Shown: positions 1 through 9,216 of the stretch, in pieces
Numbering within the stretch: position 1 is the first letter of the stretch
Layout: every line of letters begins with the position of its first letter
NCBI GenBank assembly: GCA_964353605.1
Contig: CAYGXB010000001.1
Location: forward strand, 3,932 to 39,720
Source of the DNA: an uncultured Bacteriovoracaceae bacterium
GTDB lineage: Bacteria > Desulfobacterota > Desulfomonilia > UBA1062
Direction: 5' to 3'
DNA length: 35,789 nt
The notes under the pieces: model-generated
What the model saw: only the letters and a program-made list of their open reading frames with translations
Databases searched by the model: none
Told to the model about the DNA's origin: nothing
Position numbers and translations under genes: made by a program

Positions 1-1107
1 ATGTTCATGCAGGACAGTAAGCACACGGGTCGCAGCCCGTATATCGGCGCCCAGACGAACAACGTGAAGTGGACGTTCATGACGACCGGCAAGTATGTAT
101 ACAGCAGCCCGACCATCGGGGCAAACGGTATGGTGTATGTAGGTGAATGGGGCGATCAGGGGGTGGGGTACACCTTCCCGAGTTATGTCTATGCCCTCGA
201 CAGTGATACCGGCGCTGAAATATGGTCTTTCTTGACACAAAACTGGATATGGGGCGCCCCTGCCATCGGGGCCGACGGCACGGTTTATGTGGCGAGCGAT
301 GATACCAACCTCTATGCGCTTGACGGGACGACAGGTGATCTGAAGTGGTCATTCGCGGCAGGCGATTCCATATGGGGCAGCCCGACCATAGGGGCAGACG
401 GCACAGTGTATTTTGGGAGCTGGGATGGTTATATATATGCTCTTGACGGGGCGACCGGCGACCCGAAGTGGTCCTATGATACTATGAGCCTTGTGATCTG
501 CAGCCCAGCTGTAGGTGCGGACGGCACAGTGTACGTAGGTGACATGAGCGGATATGTCACCGCCATTGATCCTGCAACCGGCGAGGATAAGTGGGTGTCG
601 CCATTGGGGCTGCCAGGCAGTGATCAGGTGTGGGGAAGCCCGTCCATCGGTGCTGACGGCACTGTTTATATAGGGGGATGGAATTCCGGCAAGCTCTTTG
701 CCCTTGATGGGGCGACCGGTGCAAAGAAATGGGAGTACAATACAGGCAGCGGCATATGGACCTGTCCGGCTATAGGGGCTGACGGCACGGTGTATGTGGG
801 AAGCTATTACAATGGCAAATTGACCGCCCTTAACGGGACAACCGGCGCCAAGGAGTGGGAATTCGCTGCAGCCGGCAGATATATGGTGAGCAGCCCGGCG
901 ATCGGGGCTGATGGCACTGTATATGTGGGAGAAATGGTTAACCCTCCGGGTACACCCAGCAAGGTCTATGCCCTTGATGGTGAAACCGGCGCAGTGAAGT
1001 GGGAGTATCTGGTAGGCGACAGGGTGGAGAGCAGCCCAGCCATCGGTGCGGACGGAACGGTCTATATCGGCAGCAAGGACGGCAACGTTTACGCCTTCGG
1101 GGATTGA
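1..1107 (+). CDS. PQQ-like (BamB-like) beta-propeller repeat protein, 5' end probably outside the window
   Basis: The ORF runs from base 1 to the TGA at 1105-1107. It has eight ~40-aa blades of the form SPxIGADGTVYVGS..G.LYALDG.TG..KW. No signal peptide or RBS is visible, so the true N-terminus is probably upstream. Confidence 0.8.
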   Translation: MFMQDSKHTGRSPYIGAQTNNVKWTFMTTGKYVYSSPTIGANGMVYVGEWGDQGVGYTFPSYVYALDSDTGAEIWSFLTQNWIWGAPAIGADGTVYVASDDTNLYALDGTTGDLKWSFAAGDSIWGSPTIGADGTVYFGSWDGYIYALDGATGDPKWSYDTMSLVICSPAVGADGTVYVGDMSGYVTAIDPATGEDKWVSPLGLPGSDQVWGSPSIGADGTVYIGGWNSGKLFALDGATGAKKWEYNTGSGIWTCPAIGADGTVYVGSYYNGKLTALNGTTGAKEWEFAAAGRYMVSSPAIGADGTVYVGEMVNPPGTPSKVYALDGETGAVKWEYLVGDRVESSPAIGADGTVYIGSKDGNVYAFGD

Positions 1108-1199
1108 TGCGCCTAAGCGCTGAAGTACATTGCAATAATCGCGGGCGCGCGGCCTTGCCAGGCGGCTCCTCTTAAAAGAGGTGGCACAGAGTGAAGGAA

Positions 1200-1231
1200 G
1201 GCTCCAGGGAAACCTGGGGCCTTTTCTTTTT
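1200..1231 (+). terminator. Rho-independent terminator after the propeller gene
   Basis: Stem-loop GGCTCCAGG-GAAA-CCTGGGGCC (one G-U pair) followed directly by TTTTCTTTTT. Confidence 0.6.
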
Positions 1232-1445
1232 CGCCATACGCAGCATGGCACCCTCCATCATGAAGTGGTTTGAGCAATCGGTGCGCAATGGTGGTCTCAA
1301 TGGTGACATGCCCAAGTCTTTGAACAAGCGAGCATGCTGAAGGTAGTGAAGAATCTCTCTTTAATGGTCTATGGAGTCTGGCCTTTGCGCAAAGGCCGTT
1401 CTTGCCGGCATGCTCTGCGACCGGCTGCGGTTTCTGGAATAGGCA

Positions 1446-1913
1446 TTATGTGTTTGCAAGACCGAGCTCCATGATGGTGACCTTCTCACCCAGGTATGCA
1501 TCATTGCAGATTTTCTGCCAGCCGAGGCGGGCATAGAATGATTCCCGATCAAAGGTGAAGAGGTACAGGGTCTCAACGCTCAAGATACGGGCCTCCTTTA
1601 TGATCTGCCGGACCAGGGCGGAGCCAATGCCCTGGTTGCGATACTCTTGGGCGACATAGACGCTCGCCAGCCATGGCGTGAGTTCCCTGTGGGTCTCCAT
1701 GTCGTGTTTCACGAGGCTGGCGGTGCCTGCAAGGCTATCTTCATGGAAGGCCACGATCGTGGTGGGTATCCCGCCGCGGGTGGCGCCTTTCTTGAGCTTC
1801 TCCATGCGCTGCCCCAAGGTTTTTTCGGGATTCATATAACCCCATTGCGCATGGATCCATTGCGCGACTATCGGTACATGCGTCAGGTGATCTGCGAGAT
1901 ATCCGATGTGCAT
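1446..1913 (-). CDS. GNAT family N-acetyltransferase
   Basis: Acetyl-CoA binding motif A (VYVAQEYRNQGIGSALV). The ATG at 1913 (MHIGYL...) has GGGAGG 5 nt upstream, so I prefer it over the longer track start at 1955. Confidence 0.8.
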   Translation of the reverse strand: MHIGYLADHLTHVPIVAQWIHAQWGYMNPEKTLGQRMEKLKKGATRGGIPTTIVAFHEDSLAGTASLVKHDMETHRELTPWLASVYVAQEYRNQGIGSALVRQIIKEARILSVETLYLFTFDRESFYARLGWQKICNDAYLGEKVTIMELGLANT

Positions 1914-2075
1914 TTTTCCTCCCAAGCGATCTTGATTCAAGATTATTATGATCATTGATACCTATGAAAGTCAAGGGAGGCTGAGGTCGCTCAAGCCCGA
2001 GAAAAAAGGACTTTGCGACCAGGGGACGAGGGGGAGAAATGCAGGGGCGGCCGGCCGGTCGCCCCTGTGGTCGGA

Positions 2076-2834
2076 TCATATCTCATGTATGCAGACGAGT
2101 CTCTTCGCCGCTATGCGGGTCTCGTCCGGGTATCCGAAGGCGTTGTTGAGGTAGAGGATGCCGTCCTTTTTTACCTGCATATTGACGTGGCTATGCCCGT
2201 AGACATGGATGCGGGAAGTAAGTCTGCGGATCTGGCCCTCGAGGAGGTTTGTTCCGAGCACGGGATAGACAACCCGCTTGCTAACAGGGATGATGGAGGG
2301 CATGAGATCGATGCGCGGGAGGAAGTGGGAGAAAGAGATGACGGTGTGATTTTCGACACGGAGATGTTTCTCGTTCAGGTTGACGAAAAGCCGGGTGATT
2401 GCCGCTTCGTCGAGGTTGTCCGGCCATGTGCAGGCGATGAAGTCCACCCAGAGGTGCTTGAGTTCGCGTACCGGCTGGCCAAAGGAATAGTCGTACCATC
2501 CGAGGAGGGGGACGATCGAGAGCTTTCCGCATTGCAGCGGATCGGTTGAGATGCCGTAGTCAATAGCGATCTGTGCGAGTCGGTAAAACTGGTCGAGGGA
2601 ATCTTTCCCGTTGTTGCGGTGCACCCAGAGGTCGTGATTGCCGGGGACGAACAGGACCTTCCGGAAGCGTTTTGTGAGCAGCTCGAAGGCCTCGAGCAGG
2701 AGGGGGAAGATGTCGGTGACGTCGCCGGCGAGGATGAGGACATCGTCGGTATACTCTGCCTTTGAGAGGCCATGGAGCCAGCGTCTGTTCTCTTCATAAT
2801 CGATGTGGATATCCGAGACGGCAAAGACCCTCAA
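2076..2834 (-). CDS. Calcineurin-like metallophosphoesterase
   Basis: Motifs in canonical order: SDIHID, LAGDVTD, GNHDLW, GHSH. The start is TTG at 2834, 21 nt after the glgX stop, with GCGAGG upstream. It is probably co-transcribed with glgX. Confidence 0.8.
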   Translation of the reverse strand: MRVFAVSDIHIDYEENRRWLHGLSKAEYTDDVLILAGDVTDIFPLLLEAFELLTKRFRKVLFVPGNHDLWVHRNNGKDSLDQFYRLAQIAIDYGISTDPLQCGKLSIVPLLGWYDYSFGQPVRELKHLWVDFIACTWPDNLDEAAITRLFVNLNEKHLRVENHTVISFSHFLPRIDLMPSIIPVSKRVVYPVLGTNLLEGQIRRLTSRIHVYGHSHVNMQVKKDGILYLNNAFGYPDETRIAAKRLVCIHEI

Positions 2835-2855
2835 GTTGCCTCGCTTTCAGCGCTA

Positions 2856-4916
2856 TTATGGTCTTACCATGAGCACCACGGCCGAGCGGGGGATGAGGCG
2901 ATAGCTTGCGGCCTCGAGAGCCGGCGCCGTAGCCGGTTCGCAATAGTCATCCGGAGAGGCGAGGGTGGTATCCACGATCCTGTGCCAGCTTTGGGTTGGC
3001 TCGAGGCGGGGCAGCTCGAAGGCAAGGCTGTCCGAATAGGCATTGAGCATGATATGGAAGCGCTCATGGTAGGCAGGGTGCCGGAGGGTGAAGGCCAGCG
3101 AGTGGGAGAATTGCGCCCAGTCCGGCTTATCTAGCTTGATGCCATGCCAGGCGATGCCCGGCTTATCCATCGCATTGGTGCTCAGTATATGCTGTTCACG
3201 GAAGATTTCATAGGACTGGATGAATCTGATAAGCCCATGGGTGAAGCGAAAGAGATCTTGGTTGCGCTCGATGAGATCCCAGTCGAACCAGCTGATCTCG
3301 TTGTCCTGGCAGTAGGCGTTATTGTTGCCCATCTGGGTGCGTCTGACTTCGTCACCCATGATGAGCATGGGGGTTCCCTGGGAGAGGAGGAGGATGGTGA
3401 GGAAATTCTTGATCTGCCGGAGGCGCAAGGCCTCGATGGCCTTATCAGCGGTCGGTCCTTCGACCCCGCAGTTCCCGCTGTAGTTTTCGTCCGAGCCGTC
3501 GCCGTTGTTCTGGAGGTTGGCCGCGTTGTGCTTGTTCTTGTAGGTGACGAGGTCGTTTAAGGTGAAGCCGTCATGGCAGGTGACGAAGTTGATGCTCCGA
3601 TTCGGCTCGCGGTCGGGCTGGGGGTAGATGTCTGGGCTGGCCATGATGCGGGCGGCGAGCCTCTGGACCGTGCCATTGTCCCCGCGCACGAAGCGGCGGA
3701 CATCGTCCCGGAAAAGGCCGTTCCATTCGGCGAAGCGGTCGCCGATGAAGCTCCCCACCTGAAAGAGCCCGGCGGCATCCCAGGCCTCGGCAATCACCTT
3801 TGTTCCGGCAAGGATAGGGTCGGATTCGATCGACCAGAGAATGGGAGGGCTTTCGAGGGGCTGGCCCATTTCGCCACGCGCCAGGACGGAGGCGAGGTCA
3901 AAGCGGAATCCATCCACGTGCATCTCCGTCACCCAGGAGCTGAGGCAGTCGGTGGTCATGCGGCGCACGATGGAGAAGTTCGCATTCAACGTATTGCCGC
4001 AGCCCGTATAATTCGTATACCGGGACTTGTCCGGCGCGAGGATATAGTACGCGGGGTTCTCGAAACCGCGGAAGGAGAGGGTGGGGCCAAACTCATCCCC
4101 TTCTGCGGTATGATTGAAGACCACGTCAAGGATCACCTCGATCCCGGACCGGTGCAGTGCCTTGACCATGTCGCGGAACTCGTCGAGGGGGCCGAGGAGC
4201 GACCGGTCTGAGCTGTATGCGTCATGGGGGGCGAAGAAGGCTATGGGGCTGTACCCCCAGTAGTTCTTGAGCGGCCGGGGTGCGTCCTGCGCATCGAACT
4301 GTTGGACGGGGAGGAGTTCGACGGCGGTGATGCCCAGCACCTTGAGATAGGGGATCTTCTCGATGAGGCCTGCATAGGTGCCGCGTTTTTCCGGAGCGAT
4401 GCCTGAGTTGGGATGGTGGGTGAAGCCTCCCACGTGGAGTTCGTAGATCACGGATTGTGCGTGGGGAATGCGCAGCGGCCGGTCGCCTTCCCAGTCATAA
4501 TGACTGGTATCGGCGACTACGCTCTTCAGGCAGGAGGCGATATTGTCGCCCGGTTTGCGGGCCGCTTCCCGGTCGTAATTCCGCGTATCGAGGGCGCGTG
4601 CATACGGATCCGCAAGGACCTTGTCGCCGTCGTACCGGTAGCCGCGTGCAGGATCGTACGGGCCGTGTACGCGATAGCCATAGATCTGGCCGGAGCCGAT
4701 GCCCGGTACAAAGCAATGCCAGTAGTAGAACGTCCGGTTCGCCTGCGGATCGAGCGCTATAACGCGCGGCCGTTTGTCATCAGGGTCGTCAAAGAGGAGA
4801 AGTTCCACGCTCTGGCAGCTCTTCGAAAAGAGGCAGAAATTGACCCCATCCGGGTAGACGGTGGCCCCGATGGGGAAGCTCTGACCGGGGAGAATATCAA
4901 TCGTTTTTCCATTCAC
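2856..4916 (-). CDS. glgX: Glycogen debranching enzyme (isoamylase-type, GH13)
   Basis: 686 aa. The N-terminus is GlgX-like (PIGATVYPDGVNFCLFSKSCQSVELLLFDD). GH13 catalytic regions are present (VILDVVFNHT, GFRFDLAS, AEAWD, FVTCHDGFTL). The start codon is GTG and its RBS is weak, so the exact start is uncertain. Confidence 0.9.
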   Translation of the reverse strand: MNGKTIDILPGQSFPIGATVYPDGVNFCLFSKSCQSVELLLFDDPDDKRPRVIALDPQANRTFYYWHCFVPGIGSGQIYGYRVHGPYDPARGYRYDGDKVLADPYARALDTRNYDREAARKPGDNIASCLKSVVADTSHYDWEGDRPLRIPHAQSVIYELHVGGFTHHPNSGIAPEKRGTYAGLIEKIPYLKVLGITAVELLPVQQFDAQDAPRPLKNYWGYSPIAFFAPHDAYSSDRSLLGPLDEFRDMVKALHRSGIEVILDVVFNHTAEGDEFGPTLSFRGFENPAYYILAPDKSRYTNYTGCGNTLNANFSIVRRMTTDCLSSWVTEMHVDGFRFDLASVLARGEMGQPLESPPILWSIESDPILAGTKVIAEAWDAAGLFQVGSFIGDRFAEWNGLFRDDVRRFVRGDNGTVQRLAARIMASPDIYPQPDREPNRSINFVTCHDGFTLNDLVTYKNKHNAANLQNNGDGSDENYSGNCGVEGPTADKAIEALRLRQIKNFLTILLLSQGTPMLIMGDEVRRTQMGNNNAYCQDNEISWFDWDLIERNQDLFRFTHGLIRFIQSYEIFREQHILSTNAMDKPGIAWHGIKLDKPDWAQFSHSLAFTLRHPAYHERFHIMLNAYSDSLAFELPRLEPTQSWHRIVDTTLASPDDYCEPATAPALEAASYRLIPRSAVVLMVRP

Positions 4917-5683: not shown

Positions 5684-6049
5684 TTATCCCTTTATGCCGT
5701 GTGCCAAAAATATGCTGATTTGCGCAGAGATATCACCGCAACCCGACTGCGCACAGCAATTGGCGCCGGCGCAGTCCACGCTCACCTGCCTTAAGTCCGC
5801 CGCCAGGCACCACTGCCTGATATCGTCGCGCTTAAAGCCCATCCAGCAGTCGTGATGCTCGGTTGTCAGGAAAACGAAGCAATGCTCATCGAGGTCGGTG
5901 ATAATCAGCTTTCCACCTGGTTTCTGTATCCGCGCCATTTCCCTGATCGCCTTGCCGGGATGCTCCACATGGTGGAGGAACATGTTCGCGAAGGCATAAT
6001 CCACGGAGGCATCGGGAAGCGGCAGGCTTTGGGCATCCCCGCTGCTCAT
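5684..6049 (-). pseudogene. N-terminally truncated class I SAM-dependent methyltransferase (C-terminal half only) with a Cys-rich tail
   Basis: It retains the post-motif-I region (GDAQSLPLPDASVDYAFANMFLHHVEHPGKAIREMARIQKPGGKLIITD). The Gly-rich SAM-binding motif I (xLDxGxGxG) is missing, and only ~40 nt separate it from the PhzF stop. The tail is VDCAGANCCAQSGCGD. ATG 6049 with GGAG 9 nt upstream could still express a 121-aa fragment. Confidence 0.5.
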
Positions 6050-6089
6050 GGGGTATACTCCATTTACAAAGACGGTAAAAATCCCTTCC

Positions 6090-6878
6090 TTAAACAAGCA
6101 ATTCACCCTTGAAGATCGTGACCGTCTGGCCGCTGATATACACCCGGTCGTGCCCCACGCGTACGCGCAGCACCCCGCCGCGTGCCGAGGCCTGGTAGGC
6201 GATGAGTTCGTGTTTGCAGAGCTTTGCACTCCAGTACGGCCCCAGGGTGCAGTGAGCGGAGCCGGTCACCGGGTCCTCATCGATGCCGACGCTGGGGGCG
6301 AAATAGCGGGAGACGAAATCGAACCCGGCGGTGCTCGCCCTGCTCGTAACAATGACACCCTGCACCGGCAGCTTTTTGAGGAGGGCAAAATCGGGCTGCA
6401 TCTGCCGCACGGTCTCCTCGTTGTCCACTTCGAGGAGATAATTCGTCCTGGTCTTGCAGATGGACAGGGGCTTGATCCCCAGGGCGTCGAATACGGGCAG
6501 GATGCCTACCTCCTCTCCCGGTTCGGCAGGGAAGTCGAGCTCGATCCAGTTTCCCTCGCGTCGCGCCGTCAGGAGACCGCTCAAGGTATGGAAGCAGGCC
6601 TTCTGTTCCGGATTCACGATCCCCGTCTCCCAGAGGATGTGGGCGCTGGCGAGCGTAGCGTGTCCGCACAGGTCAACTTCCGCCACGGGTGTAAACCAGC
6701 GCAAACTGAACCCGTAGTCTTCCTGCACAAGGAAGGCCGTCTCGGAGAGGTTCATCTCCCTGGCCACGTGCTGCATCCATCCCGCATCCTTTGCCCCAGG
6801 CAATAGACAAACCGCGGCCGGATTCCCGAGGAACGGGGCGTGAGCGAATGCGTCTACTTGATAGATCGGTATCCCCAT
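6090..6878 (-). CDS. PhzF family isomerase/epimerase-like protein
   Basis: MGIPIYQVDAFAHAPFLGNPAAVCLL...NLSETAFLV...DLCGHATLA...TGSAHCTLGPYW are PhzF-family hallmarks. The ATG at 6878 has GAGGAGGAA upstream. Confidence 0.85.
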   Translation of the reverse strand: MGIPIYQVDAFAHAPFLGNPAAVCLLPGAKDAGWMQHVAREMNLSETAFLVQEDYGFSLRWFTPVAEVDLCGHATLASAHILWETGIVNPEQKACFHTLSGLLTARREGNWIELDFPAEPGEEVGILPVFDALGIKPLSICKTRTNYLLEVDNEETVRQMQPDFALLKKLPVQGVIVTSRASTAGFDFVSRYFAPSVGIDEDPVTGSAHCTLGPYWSAKLCKHELIAYQASARGGVLRVRVGHDRVYISGQTVTIFKGELLV

Positions 6879-7017
6879 GGCGTTCCTCCTCACCAGTGTT
6901 TCTCGCCACCGAGCTCTGCATCCGGCGGTCATGTCGAAGTGCGACACGTGTCTTTGCGCCCCAACCTGACCGGCGGATACTTGACCCCGTTGTAATCAAG
7001 GGGTGGTGGTTTTCAAA

Positions 7018-7032
7018 CCGGCGACCTGCCGG
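7018..7032 (-). promoter_or_regulatory. SECIS-like hairpin for the second UGA (lies 3' of the final stop)
   Basis: The mRNA reads CCGGC-AGGUC-GCCGG: a 5-bp stem with the same AGGUC loop. It starts 12 nt after the UGA at 7045-7047. Confidence 0.45.
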
Positions 7033-7035
7033 TGG

Positions 7036-7251
7036 TCATACCCCTCAGGAGCCGCCGTAGCCGAGGGTGACCTTGTCCCCGTCGACGATGACAGGGACCT
7101 TTCTTGCCCCGCCGGTGAGCTTGAGCATCTCCGCGAGCTTCGCGGTGTCCTTCTTCACATCGAAGTACGCCGCCTGTTCTCCATAGGCCGACCTGGCCTG
7201 ATCTGTATAGGGTCAACCCGCCTTGCCGTAGATCAATACCTTCTTTTCCAT
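7036..7251 (-). CDS. Glutaredoxin-fold selenoprotein with a U-P-Y-T active site and a possible second Sec in a C-terminal U-G-V-stop
   Basis: Hand translation from ATG 7251 (GGGGG RBS, 16 nt after the arsM stop): MEKKVLIYGKAG-U(TGA 7213-7215)-PYTDQARSAYGEQAAYFDVKKDTAKLAEMLKLTGGARKVPVIVDGDKVTLGYGGS-U(TGA 7045-7047)-GV-stop(TGA 7036-7038). Grx-like sequence continues in frame after the first TGA. A SECIS-like hairpin follows each TGA. If the second TGA is simply the stop, the CDS ends at 7045. Confidence 0.7.
7185..7199 (-). promoter_or_regulatory. SECIS-like hairpin for the first UGA
   Basis: The mRNA reads AGGCC-AGGUC-GGCCU: a 5-bp stem with a 5-nt loop containing GGU. It starts 13 nt after the UGA. 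Confidence 0.55.
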
Positions 7252-7267
7252 GCGAACCCCCTATCGG

Positions 7268-8095
7268 TTATGGTTTCGTGGCATATACTTTAATGCTGGC
7301 AATCGAACGTGCAAGATCTTGCGCCTTTTCCTCCGTCAAATGGAGGTTTTCCGCGATCGCCATCGCCGTGGGATCGTTCGCGAGGAATTCGAGGGGAAAG
7401 GTGGTCTCTTCCAGGATCGTTACCCCCTGAAAGCCGGCTGCCTGAATGGTCTGGATATATGTATCTTTCTTGACCGCCCCCGCAATGCAGCCCACGTATG
7501 CCTCGATCGAGCCTTGAATCTCGTGCGGGAGGGCCGTCAGGAGCACGATATCCGACACCATGAGCCTGCCGCCGGGTTTGAGCACCCGGAAGGCCTCTAG
7601 AAATACCCGCGTCTTGTCGGGCGAGAGATTGATGACGCAGTTCGAGATCACAATATCGGCTTGATTGTCCGCCACGGGCAGGTTCTCGATCTCCCCGAGC
7701 CTGAACTCGACATTGCTGTAGCCGCCTTTCCGCGCATTCTCCCGCGCACGGTCAATCATCTCAGGGGTCATATCCACCCCGATCACTCTCCCGCCACCTC
7801 CCACCTTGCCAGCAGCGAGGAAGCAATCGAAACCGGCACCCGCGCCGAGGTCGACGACGGTCTCCCCCTCCTTCAGTGAGGCAAGGGCAACCGGGTTCCC
7901 GCAGCCGAGCCCCAGGTTGGCACCCTCCGGCACGGCGCGTATGTCCTCATCGCTATATCCGATCCGACGGCTGATTTCCCGGGCGACACTGCCCGAACCA
8001 CAGCATGCCGGAGCGCCTGCGCAGCATGTGCCGCCCTGCTCGGCGATGCGTGCATAGCCGTCTCTGACGGACTTCTTGATCTCTTCCTGCTCCAT
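7268..8095 (-). CDS. arsM: Arsenite S-adenosylmethionine methyltransferase
   Basis: SAM motif I VVDLGAGAGFD. ArsM-specific Cys motifs are present: N-terminal CC pairs (GGTCCAGAPACCGSGS), LGLGCGNP, VISNCVINL, YVGCIAGA. ATG 8095 lies 4 nt after the upstream stop, with GAGAGG upstream. Confidence 0.9.
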   Translation of the reverse strand: MEQEEIKKSVRDGYARIAEQGGTCCAGAPACCGSGSVAREISRRIGYSDEDIRAVPEGANLGLGCGNPVALASLKEGETVVDLGAGAGFDCFLAAGKVGGGGRVIGVDMTPEMIDRARENARKGGYSNVEFRLGEIENLPVADNQADIVISNCVINLSPDKTRVFLEAFRVLKPGGRLMVSDIVLLTALPHEIQGSIEAYVGCIAGAVKKDTYIQTIQAAGFQGVTILEETTFPLEFLANDPTAMAIAENLHLTEEKAQDLARSIASIKVYATKP

Positions 8096-8099
8096 GTCT

Positions 8100-8357
8100 T
8101 TACCTCTCACTGGATGTGCTGCCCTTGCGCCGGGACATCATCTCGCAGCAGGCGGAGAAGAACTTCTGCATGTCCTCCTGCTTCAGCGTGCCCATATCGA
8201 AGCACCCGGCGCAGCCAGCATCCTTGGATGATCCCCGGTGCTCAAACATCTTTTCGCAACAGGCCTTGAAGAACTCATCCGTCTTTCCGGACTGCGAGGC
8301 GTGCATCTTCTCAAACATACTGCCGAACATCTTCATCATCTTCTCCCTGTGCATCAT
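8100..8357 (-). CDS. Small Met/Cys-rich cytoplasmic protein of unknown function (duplicated FFxACCExM motif plus CAGC)
   Basis: 85 aa from ATGATG at 8357/8354, preceded by AAAGGAGGG. It has no signal peptide. It contains EFFKACCEKMF and KFFSACCEMMS plus a central CAGC. It sits tightly between the AbrB-like gene and arsM. I recognise no family. Confidence 0.6.
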   Translation of the reverse strand: MMHREKMMKMFGSMFEKMHASQSGKTDEFFKACCEKMFEHRGSSKDAGCAGCFDMGTLKQEDMQKFFSACCEMMSRRKGSTSSER

Positions 8358-8370
8358 AAACCCTCCTTTT

Positions 8371-8646
8371 TTATGCATTTGTCCCGCCTCGCATCACCGG
8401 GCCGATGAAATTCATGACATGCTCCGCGAGGTGGTCGGCCTTGATCAGGGTGATGCAGCAGACAATCCCTTCCTTTTCCCAGCTGATGACGGCCAGCTTT
8501 TCGCCGGGCCGGATCTCGGCCCGCTCCCGTAAGTCCTTGGGGAGCACCATCTGCCCCCGCTCGTCGATGCTGATGAGCGACTCCACCTTGCAGCAGCTCT
8601 TGCTCTCTGCCGAGCAGCACGTTGCATCCTTTCCCTCTTTTGCCAT
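8371..8646 (-). CDS. AbrB/MazE/SpoVT-type DNA-binding domain protein with three vicinal Cys pairs
   Basis: The SpoVT-AbrB core (IDERGQMVLPKDLRERAEIRPGEKLAV) is flanked by CCSAESKSCC at the N-terminus and GIVCCITL after the core. ATG 8646 has AAGGAG upstream. Confidence 0.75.
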   Translation of the reverse strand: MAKEGKDATCCSAESKSCCKVESLISIDERGQMVLPKDLRERAEIRPGEKLAVISWEKEGIVCCITLIKADHLAEHVMNFIGPVMRGGTNA

Positions 8647-8665
8647 ATCCGTTCTCCTTGGCGGG

Positions 8666-8739
8666 ATATTTCTGATGTATGCAATCAATCAGAAATATCT
8701 GATTAATCAGAATATAACAAAATATCAGAGCGGTGTCAA
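8666..8739 (-). promoter_or_regulatory. Sigma70-like promoter with an overlapping operator array for the AbrB-like/arsM operon
   Basis: On the minus strand: -35 TTGACA (8734-8739), a 17-nt spacer, then -10 TATATT (8711-8716). There are five TCTGAT/ATCAGA half-sites at 8671-76, 8688-93, 8698-8703, 8706-11 and 8724-29. They form a perfect 14-bp palindrome TCTGATTAATCAGA (8698-8711), AATCAGA-AATA-TCTGATT (8687-8704), and an 11-bp inverted repeat ATATTTCTGAT/ATCAGAAATAT (8666-76 / 8688-98). Confidence 0.65.
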
Positions 8740-8817
8740 GAAAATTTATTGCCCTTCTCTCTCCCCTCCGGGAATGAGGGCAAGACCTTGGTGACTAGAG
8801 AGACACGCCTGGTCGAT

Positions 8818-9216
8818 TTACTCGAAATAATCCACGAATTCCGGGGGGAGCTTAGTCTTGTCGACCCGGAAGAGCTCGATGAGGACGTCGTCCGGGGCGG
8901 GGATCATGAGGTATTTCCAGATTCCAAGGTCGGTGATGTCCTTTTTGAGTTCGATGCCGCCTGCTTTGAGCGTGCATACTACCTCTGCGATATCGTCGGT
9001 CTGGATGCCGAAGTGATGGATGTTGCCCCGGCAGGGGTTCTTGGGAGGCTGGTCGTAAAGGTGGAGCCTGCCGCTCCCGATCCTGATGAACACATTGCGG
9101 GCGCCGGCGAGTTTCTCGTCGAGAACCACCTTGCCCCCGAAGAAGTCTACATAGAAGCGGATGCTCTTTTCGATATCCGAGGCAAAGATATGCACATGGT
9201 GGATATGACACGGCAT
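8818..9216 (-). CDS. VOC (glyoxalase/bleomycin resistance/dioxygenase) family protein
   Basis: 132 aa. It shows the beta-alpha-beta-beta-beta pattern with H at the N-terminus (HIHHVHIFASDIEKSIRFY) and a later HHFGIQ. GGGAGGG lies upstream. Confidence 0.75.
   Translation of the reverse strand: MPCHIHHVHIFASDIEKSIRFYVDFFGGKVVLDEKLAGARNVFIRIGSGRLHLYDQPPKNPCRGNIHHFGIQTDDIAEVVCTLKAGGIELKKDITDLGIWKYLMIPAPDDVLIELFRVDKTKLPPEFVDYFE

Follow-up and report, generated by a model that had tools for sequence, protein, structure and literature searches.

A 35,789-nucleotide (nt) stretch of DNA from an uncultured Bacteriovoracaceae bacterium (GenBank assembly GCA_964353605.1, contig CAYGXB010000001.1), called the window below and used for all coordinates, carries a glutaredoxin-like open reading frame (ORF) at 7251-7036 of the minus strand, referred to as the gene. 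With a probability of about 0.9, the gene is a genuine selenoprotein gene and belongs, as a typical member, to the curated UXX-star selenoprotein family 1, with two UGA codons predicted to be read as selenocysteine (Sec, U). The family, its two Sec residues and its C-terminal Sec-x-x-stop have been described before; the gene is an unannotated instance rather than a discovery, and the NCBI annotation pipeline holds a model able to name it.

From the ATG at 7251-7249, the frame reads MEKKVLIYGKAG-TGA(7215-7213)-PYTDQARSAYGEQAAYFDVKKDTAKLAEMLKLTGGARKVPVIVDGDKVTLGYGGS-TGA(7047-7045)-GV-TGA(7038-7036), which gives the protein layout MEKKVLIYGKAG-U-PYT...GYGGS-U-GV-stop. The ORF, both in-frame TGA codons and the stop had been proposed in a sequence-only reading of the window; every coordinate was reproduced and the translation was identical. 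That reading had also held that TGA splits the gene in ordinary ORF lists, and six-frame lists and standard gene callers do break or miss it, while reading the sequence alone recovers it. The upstream arsM gene ends with TAA at 7270-7268 (minus strand), and the ribosome-binding site assigned to the 16 nt after this stop was read within the spacer as AGGGGG (Table 1).

Family assignment and fold

Family searches were run with both U residues written as C, as the sequence-only reading had proposed. The protein scored 108.2 bits (cutoff 72) against NF041114, "UXX-star selenoprotein family 1" (NCBIfam, equivalog), with residues 5-71 covering profile positions 1-70 of 70, the full length of the model. 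The parent model NF041212, "Uxx-star family glutaredoxin-like (seleno)protein", gave 82.3 bits (cutoff 66), and Pfam Glutaredoxin (PF00462) matched residues 5-58 with 30.9 bits (cutoff 22.9). The glutaredoxin-like '[U/C]-x-x-stop' family that the sequence-only reading had brought up is thus real, and by the two NCBIfam scores the gene belongs to it. Other Uxx-star models stayed below cutoff (family 2, 50 bits versus 100; family 3, 55 versus 97; HUGP/GUXX-star fusion model NF045501, 50 versus 325), and all specific glutaredoxin NCBIfam models were far under their cutoffs for this protein.

The U-x-x-T motif of family 1, in which homologs carry U or C at the first position, is present as U-P-Y-T (residues 13-16), and Sec69 is followed by two residues and the stop, as in UXX-star proteins. 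Sec13 aligns with the first Cys of the glutaredoxin motif, where the first TGA had been placed. In a 2026 review (PMC13188914) the family appears under the name "Distant Grx-like protein 1", is given the motif UxxT and 2 Sec, and is attributed to Zhang and Gladyshev (2008); two Sec residues, which had been called unusual, are therefore the norm for this family. The review lists Uxx-star family 2 with one Sec and a GxGU motif, and notes that the Sec residues of the UXX-star family may bind metals.

The PDB glutaredoxin/NrdH-like structures 2klx, 7c12 and 3ic4 align with the protein from strand 1 to strand 4 (V-T-L-G-Y), a stretch that includes the cis-proline motif R-K-V-P-V-I-V. In the structure-match alignment the protein ends 6-7 residues past strand 4, so that the usual C-terminal helix is missing, and position four of the active site is Thr, leaving the motif without a resolving Cys. 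A C-x-x-C or C-x-x-S site together with a complete glutaredoxin fold and C-terminal helix was not found in this protein.

With family 1 (NF041114) the gene shares U-x-x-T at codon 13, a Sec third from the C-terminus, 2 Sec and a length of about 70 residues. It does not depart structurally from the family, and the only difference is its neighbourhood, since here the gene closes an arsM operon. Members of the other Uxx-star families (NF041212 superfamily, families 2 and 3, NF045501) have in common with it a short glutaredoxin-like fold and a C-terminal Sec-x-x-stop. The clostridial selenoprotein glutaredoxin (PF00462, UxxC; Kim et al., 2011, cited in PMC13188914) shares the first-position Sec and a selenocysteine insertion sequence (SECIS) inside the coding sequence (CDS), but has a resolving Cys, a full C-terminal helix and a single Sec, whereas in this protein the fourth motif residue is Thr, the C-terminal helix is absent and the tail bears a second Sec. 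Small proteins of the NrdH/YruB type (TIGR02196; PDB 7c12, 3ic4, 2klx) are the best solved-structure matches, from strand 1 to strand 4 with the cis-Pro VP motif included; unlike the protein described here they have CxxC, a C-terminal helix and no selenium, and TIGR02196 scored 29.8 bits against a cutoff of 88.6.

Decoding of both UGA codons in related loci

Searching one genome per species turned up relatives in 436 genomes, from which 80 loci were taken, mostly from Thermodesulfobacteriota (Syntrophales, Desulfobacterales), Nitrospirota and Pelotomaculum. A metagenome scan gave 80 further loci, and the frame could be placed in 159 loci. At codon 13, TGA was present in 133 of these, TGC or TGT in 25 and TAA in one. 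At codon 69, all 158 loci that reach it have TGA, followed by Gly-Val (139 loci) or Gly-Ile (11 loci). Two codons further on, the frame terminates with TGA (87 loci), TAA (55) or TAG (14). A codon that is always TGA, beside a position that uses all three stops freely, points to a Sec codon next to the true stop. Among the redox residues of the family, Sec69 is the most strictly conserved.

Between the two UGA codons, mean column entropy at codon positions 1, 2 and 3 was 0.60, 0.49 and 1.57 bits (117 distinct sequences), a coding-type pattern which indicates that the segment after UGA-1 evolves as protein-coding sequence. Homologs do not end at the first TGA; together with the presence of TGA or Cys at codon 13, this bears out the earlier argument, for which an ortholog alignment had been suggested, that the frame continues past UGA-1 rather than truncating there. 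Sequencing error is excluded by an independent metagenome contig (L082) with 98.4% nucleotide identity over window positions 7641-7000, which carries both TGA codons and both hairpins described below.

The Cys13 forms cluster by lineage (Pelotomaculum: L005, L006, L009, L030, L056, L067; a Syntrophus/Smithella group: L001, L024, L025, L029, L035) and all keep TGA at codon 69, so the C-terminal Sec is invariant and the active-site position toggles between Sec and Cys. The TAA at codon 13 belongs to a Nitrospirae genome bin (L021) in which the rest of the frame, TGA69 and the second hairpin are nevertheless kept; this form may reflect recent pseudogenization or an error in sequencing.

If TGA were reassigned (codes 4 or 25), Trp or Gly would stand at both sites, and five database homologs (P0004, P0008, P0011, P0019, P0035) do have W at both positions. 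These entries are best explained by a wrong code table, however, and homologs that lack TGA carry Cys there, never Trp or Gly. TGA is an ordinary stop, used by 9 of 25 confident window genes, which argues against a reassigned code, and it is the family's own stop in 87 of 156 loci. Thermodesulfobacteriota, Nitrospirota and Pelotomaculum, from which the related loci come, are not known to reassign TGA, and reassignment is considered hardly credible.

SECIS hairpins

Two hairpins with the same AGGUC loop were found where the sequence-only reading had placed them, beginning 13 nt after UGA-1 and 12 nt after UGA-2. The core of the second is CCGGC(7032-7028)-AGGUC(7027-7023)-GCCGG(7022-7018), and an A7033-U7017 pair can extend its stem. 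The distance from UGA to loop is 18 nt for hairpin 1 and 17 nt for hairpin 2. To estimate chance occurrence, 5-base-pair (bp) Watson-Crick stems with an AGGTC loop were counted on both strands of the entire window and in 200 dinucleotide-preserving shuffles. Exactly two were present in the window, hairpins 1 and 2, compared with a shuffle mean of 0.055 and 0/200 shuffles with at least two. A homemade screen of the window for further genes combining a TGA with a hairpin gave nothing convincing.

In the bacterial SECIS model of PMC13188914 (section 5), the loop has 3-9 nt, the stem at least 4 bp and the UGA-to-loop distance is 16-37 nt; one of the first two loop positions is a G, with G or U after it. 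Both hairpins satisfy this model, with G at loop position 2, in agreement with the likeness to bacterial SECIS elements claimed earlier. A short upper stem, a small loop starting with G then G/U and a UGA-to-loop distance of 16-37 nt are features in common with the E. coli fdhF SECIS and consensus model. Unlike the fdhF element, the second hairpin here follows the stop codon and is hence untranslated. Only two codons come after Sec69, so SECIS-2 necessarily lies past the stop; untranslated SECIS placement is known to work in engineered E. coli constructs.

For SECIS-2, 74 distinct sequences were aligned from UGA-2 and six helix pairs were scored. Standard pairs occupied 90.8% of cells, all six pairs were changed on both sides, with 138 double-changed cells (one pair, for example, is CG in 33 sequences and GC in 33), and the observed covariation score was reached by 0/500 shuffles. 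Sliding the 3′ arm by 1-3 columns as a control lowered pairing to 25-47%, and RNAalifold independently predicted the same helix. With maximal pairing in 128 sequences, the loop starts 16-22 nt past the UGA in 120/128 (mode 18) and G falls within the first two loop positions in 120/128.

A GC-rich stem directly after the stop, followed by UUUG, could also be taken as an intrinsic transcription terminator of the operon, which would then be the main function of hairpin 2 in place of a SECIS. This is judged improbable: the tract has just three U, a terminator scan did not call it and most homologs are without a U tract, while the homologs hold the hairpin at a fixed distance from UGA-2 with G at loop positions 1-2, and the loop sequence recurs unchanged in hairpin 1, within the CDS.

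For SECIS-1, five pairs were scored in 54 distinct Sec-form sequences, with standard pairs in 97.4% of cells and in 10-57% of cells in slid controls. The wobble base of the codon before Ala compensates that of the second Ala codon (GC 23, AU 14, GU 8, CG 2, UA 2), and a second compensating pair joins GCC/GCU with UCG/UCA (CG 49, UA 4); the covariation thus sits where the genetic code allows it, wobble to wobble. In both hairpins, then, pairing is kept in orthologous loci through compensatory changes, a conservation on which the sequence-only reading had made its case depend.

Sequences with UGA13 (n = 51) were compared with sequences with Cys13 (n = 18). The AGGUC loop was present in 40/51 Sec forms and 3/18 Cys forms, and all five SECIS-1 pairs were formed in 44/51 and 7/18, respectively. 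The Arg codon was AGG in 46/51 Sec forms; Cys forms drift to CGG, Leu and Ile codons, often encoding Leu or Ile. SECIS-1 features are thus relaxed in Cys13 forms, which ties the hairpin to the UGA and not to the protein, and the AGG held in Sec forms but drifting in Cys forms marks an RNA constraint tied to the UGA. For the Arg-Ser that follows the active site (window 7190-7195), Sec forms use AGG-UCG almost exclusively; these two residues are dictated by the SECIS loop, a clear example of protein sequence being shaped by an RNA signal.

These comparisons also bear on whether UGA-1 is decoded at all. If only UGA-2 were decoded, or if UGA-1 terminated translation in a decaying or truncated locus, hairpin 1 would be a by-product of the Ala-Arg-Ser-Ala codons. 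In line with this, hairpin 1 is no more stable than shuffled sequences, it overlaps conserved residues, so that the protein alone predicts some nucleotide conservation, and L021 has TAA at codon 13. A stop at UGA-1 would leave a 12-residue peptide, yet the next 55 codons are under clear purifying selection, and neither the covariation of hairpin 1 at synonymous wobble positions nor the contrast in Arg codons between Sec and Cys forms fits a by-product. Failure to decode UGA-1 is therefore regarded as very improbable, more so than the terminator.

Several points weigh against selenoprotein status or parts of it. Folding energies are unremarkable on their own (z = +0.32 for hairpin 1, which is no more stable than its composition predicts, and -1.67 for hairpin 2), so the case is built on the shared loop and spacing and on the comparative data rather than on thermodynamics. 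An Rfam scan of 6000-8500 (E ≤ 10) returned chance-level matches only and no SECIS family; one of these, Rothia-sucC, overlaps hairpin 1 with 21 bits against a gathering score of 64.5. The family is regarded as a computational prediction in PMC13188914. Neither selA, selB nor selD was found among about 45 scanned window ORFs, and tRNA-Sec was also missing, as ARAGORN detected no tRNA gene in the window, which derives from a metagenome; that the organism can insert Sec would be deduced from the gene itself. Bonding between the two Sec residues, proposed in the next section, is derived from thioredoxin-fold topology.

Proposed mechanism

In the proposed mechanism, the ribosome would read both UGA codons as Sec, and each AGGUC-loop hairpin would act as a bacterial SECIS that recruits SelB carrying Sec-tRNA(Sec). 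SECIS-1 would fix the codons GCC-AGG-UCG-GCC (Ala-Arg-Ser-Ala). The third UGA (7038-7036), 8 nt from the SECIS-2 loop, would be too close for decoding and would act as the stop. The locus offers a clear illustration of a 216-nt gene with two bacterial SECIS elements, of which only the first is translated.

The product would be a 71-residue protein of thioredoxin/glutaredoxin fold that ends right after β-strand 4, with Sec69 on the glycine-rich tail G-G-S-U-G-V, in which the Gly-Gly-Ser linker would let Sec69 reach Sec13. The end of strand 4 faces the active site in the thioredoxin fold, and for this reason bonding of Sec69 with Sec13 is proposed, most likely as a reversible diselenide, or as a selenenylsulfide in Cys13 variants. 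The tail would resemble the mobile Sec-bearing tail of mammalian thioredoxin reductase, Gly-Cys-Sec-Gly-stop, in which a redox-active Sec near the C-terminus is carried on a flexible Gly-containing tail that visits another redox centre. The mammalian protein is a large flavoenzyme in which Sec pairs with a neighbouring Cys and the eukaryotic SECIS lies far off in the 3′ untranslated region, whereas the protein described here is 71 residues long, with the partner residues 56 positions apart and about 12 nt from the UGA to the start of the SECIS.

We infer that the protein would serve either as a small redox carrier of low potential or in metalloid binding. The two Sec residues may bond with each other or, as suggested for the family in PMC13188914, bind metals, and the data presented here are compatible with both.

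Database entries

Public protein sets (P0001-P0040) hold the family mostly in three faulty forms. The first consists of 68-residue truncations that end at Sec69 and are named 'glutaredoxin 3'. The second, 70-71 residues long, has Trp at both Sec positions (the five entries named above), which suggests translation with a wrong code table. The third consists of fragments that start after Sec13 (P0036, P0039, P0040).

Features of the locus and the arsM neighbourhood

The coordinates of the gene, its signals and the genes upstream are collected in Table 1.

Table 1. Features of the selenoprotein gene and the adjoining arsM cluster in the window
Feature	Position	Strand	Basis
Glutaredoxin-like predicted selenoprotein CDS, 71 residues, stop included	7036..7251	-	Translation and full-length NF041114 match
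UGA-1, predicted Sec13 (codon 13), first residue of U-P-Y-T active-site motif	7213..7215	-	Aligned codon in 159 loci
UGA-2, predicted Sec69 (codon 69), third residue from C-terminus, U-G-V-stop	7045..7047	-	TGA in 158/158 readable loci
True stop codon, UGA here	7036..7038	-	Homologous position uses TGA/TAA/TAG
Predicted SECIS-1 hairpin, AGGCC(7199-7195)-AGGUC(7194-7190)-GGCCU(7189-7185), within CDS, encodes Q-A-R-S-A-Y	7185..7199	-	Starts 13 nt after UGA-1
Predicted SECIS-2 hairpin, ACCGGC-AGGUC-GCCGGU, 3′ untranslated, just past stop	7017..7033	-	Covariation, RNAalifold
Shine-Dalgarno-like AGGGGG, 5 nt before ATG, within 16-nt spacer between arsM and the gene	7257..7262	-	Direct reading
arsM, arsenite methyltransferase, 16 nt upstream of the gene, same strand	7268..8110	-	NF008823, 358.8 bits versus cutoff 263
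92-residue protein with several Cys-Cys pairs, between regulator gene and arsM	8100..8378	-	ORF translation
AbrB-type DNA-binding protein, HgcC family, first gene of apparent operon	8371..8688	-	NF040962, 117.3 bits versus cutoff 70
Sigma-70-like promoter TTGACA-17-TATATT, extended -10 TG	8711..8739	-	Consensus match only, 11/12 hexamer positions

The promoter-like site at 8739-8711 was the sole one found in 6700-8900. Behind it follow four genes on the same strand, those for the HgcC-family regulator and the 92-residue protein, arsM and, last, the selenoprotein gene. The cluster looks like an arsenic-methylation operon, and the gene is probably co-transcribed with arsM in this organism. The HgcC-family gene probably starts at the ATG at 8646; the name HgcC otherwise refers to an association with the mercury-methylation genes hgcAB. 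The 92-residue Cys-Cys protein gave no family match in NCBIfam or Pfam.

In the closest syntenic relatives (L003, from a Syntrophaceae-labelled genome bin, and the metagenome contigs L083 and L107), the order is GNAT acetyltransferase, methyltransferase, selenoprotein and PhzF-like isomerase. Compared with these, about 2 kb (9216-7268) is extra here between the methyltransferase and the selenoprotein gene, comprising a glyoxalase-family gene and the genes for the HgcC-family regulator, the 92-residue Cys-Cys protein and arsM. The relatives have the glutaredoxin-like gene without the arsenic module, which indicates that the module was inserted upstream of a resident gene.

No partner shared across the family was found by tblastn with neighbouring proteins against the 160 related loci, by clustering of flanking ORFs or by a Pfam census of 105 upstream neighbours. 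ArsM adjoins the gene in L082 only, which is of the same species, and the upstream neighbours vary widely (among them sigma factors, beta-CASP nucleases, BrkB and cNMP-binding proteins), with no Pfam family in more than 10/105 loci. A conserved arsM partnership as a family-wide rule was therefore rejected.

The protein could still be a dedicated partner of ArsM in this organism, re-reducing the catalytic disulfide of ArsM, or delivering As(III) or methyl-As(III) to ArsM or accepting them from it. Such a role is thought unlikely, although less so than the other alternatives weighed above. It would fit the 16-nt same-strand spacer with no promoter-like site between arsM and the gene, the position of the single promoter-like site upstream of the HgcC-family regulator gene, and the arsM-selenoprotein gene pair of L082, which is intact although the sequence downstream of the hairpin differs. 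NCBIfam, moreover, contains ArsM-like methyltransferases with fused Sec-bearing tails or domains (NF047649, NF041536, NF041537), and metal binding by UXX-star Sec residues has been considered (PMC13188914). Against it stand the restriction of the adjacency to one further locus of the same species, the insertion of the arsenic module upstream of an already resident gene, as seen from L003, L083 and L107, and the heterogeneity of upstream neighbours across the family. It is likewise doubtful, though conceivable, that a resident double-Sec protein was captured as the terminal gene of an inserted, HgcC-type-regulated arsenic-methylation operon and serves ArsM as a selenol reductant or trivalent-arsenic carrier; if so, it would be a free-standing counterpart of the ArsM proteins fused to Sec-bearing tails. 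Nothing of use emerged from literature searches on ArsM reduction and HgcC. The link to arsM is a weak hint, limited to this lineage, and agrees with the published idea of metalloid chemistry for the family, and the residual interest of the locus lies in this context and in the function of the family.

L082 (Ga0315295_10001019; 643-4603 compared) diverges completely from the window below about 7000, right after SECIS-2, and beyond the breakpoint has a PAS histidine kinase and a LuxR-type response regulator in place of PhzF. The breakpoint could reflect a strain rearrangement or an assembly chimera. In the window, the PhzF-like gene is followed by an ORF at 5684-6090 (minus strand) that encodes only the C-terminal half of a class I methyltransferase domain and a Cys-rich tail, DCAGANCCAQSGCG. 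In L083, PhzF is directly followed by a glycogen debranching gene; this relative lacks the intervening segment, and the approximately 1.1 kb present here is thus a second local insertion, possibly a gene remnant. The serine hydroxymethyltransferase of the window is identical to one on contig k141_3868015 of ENA ERZ27247916.

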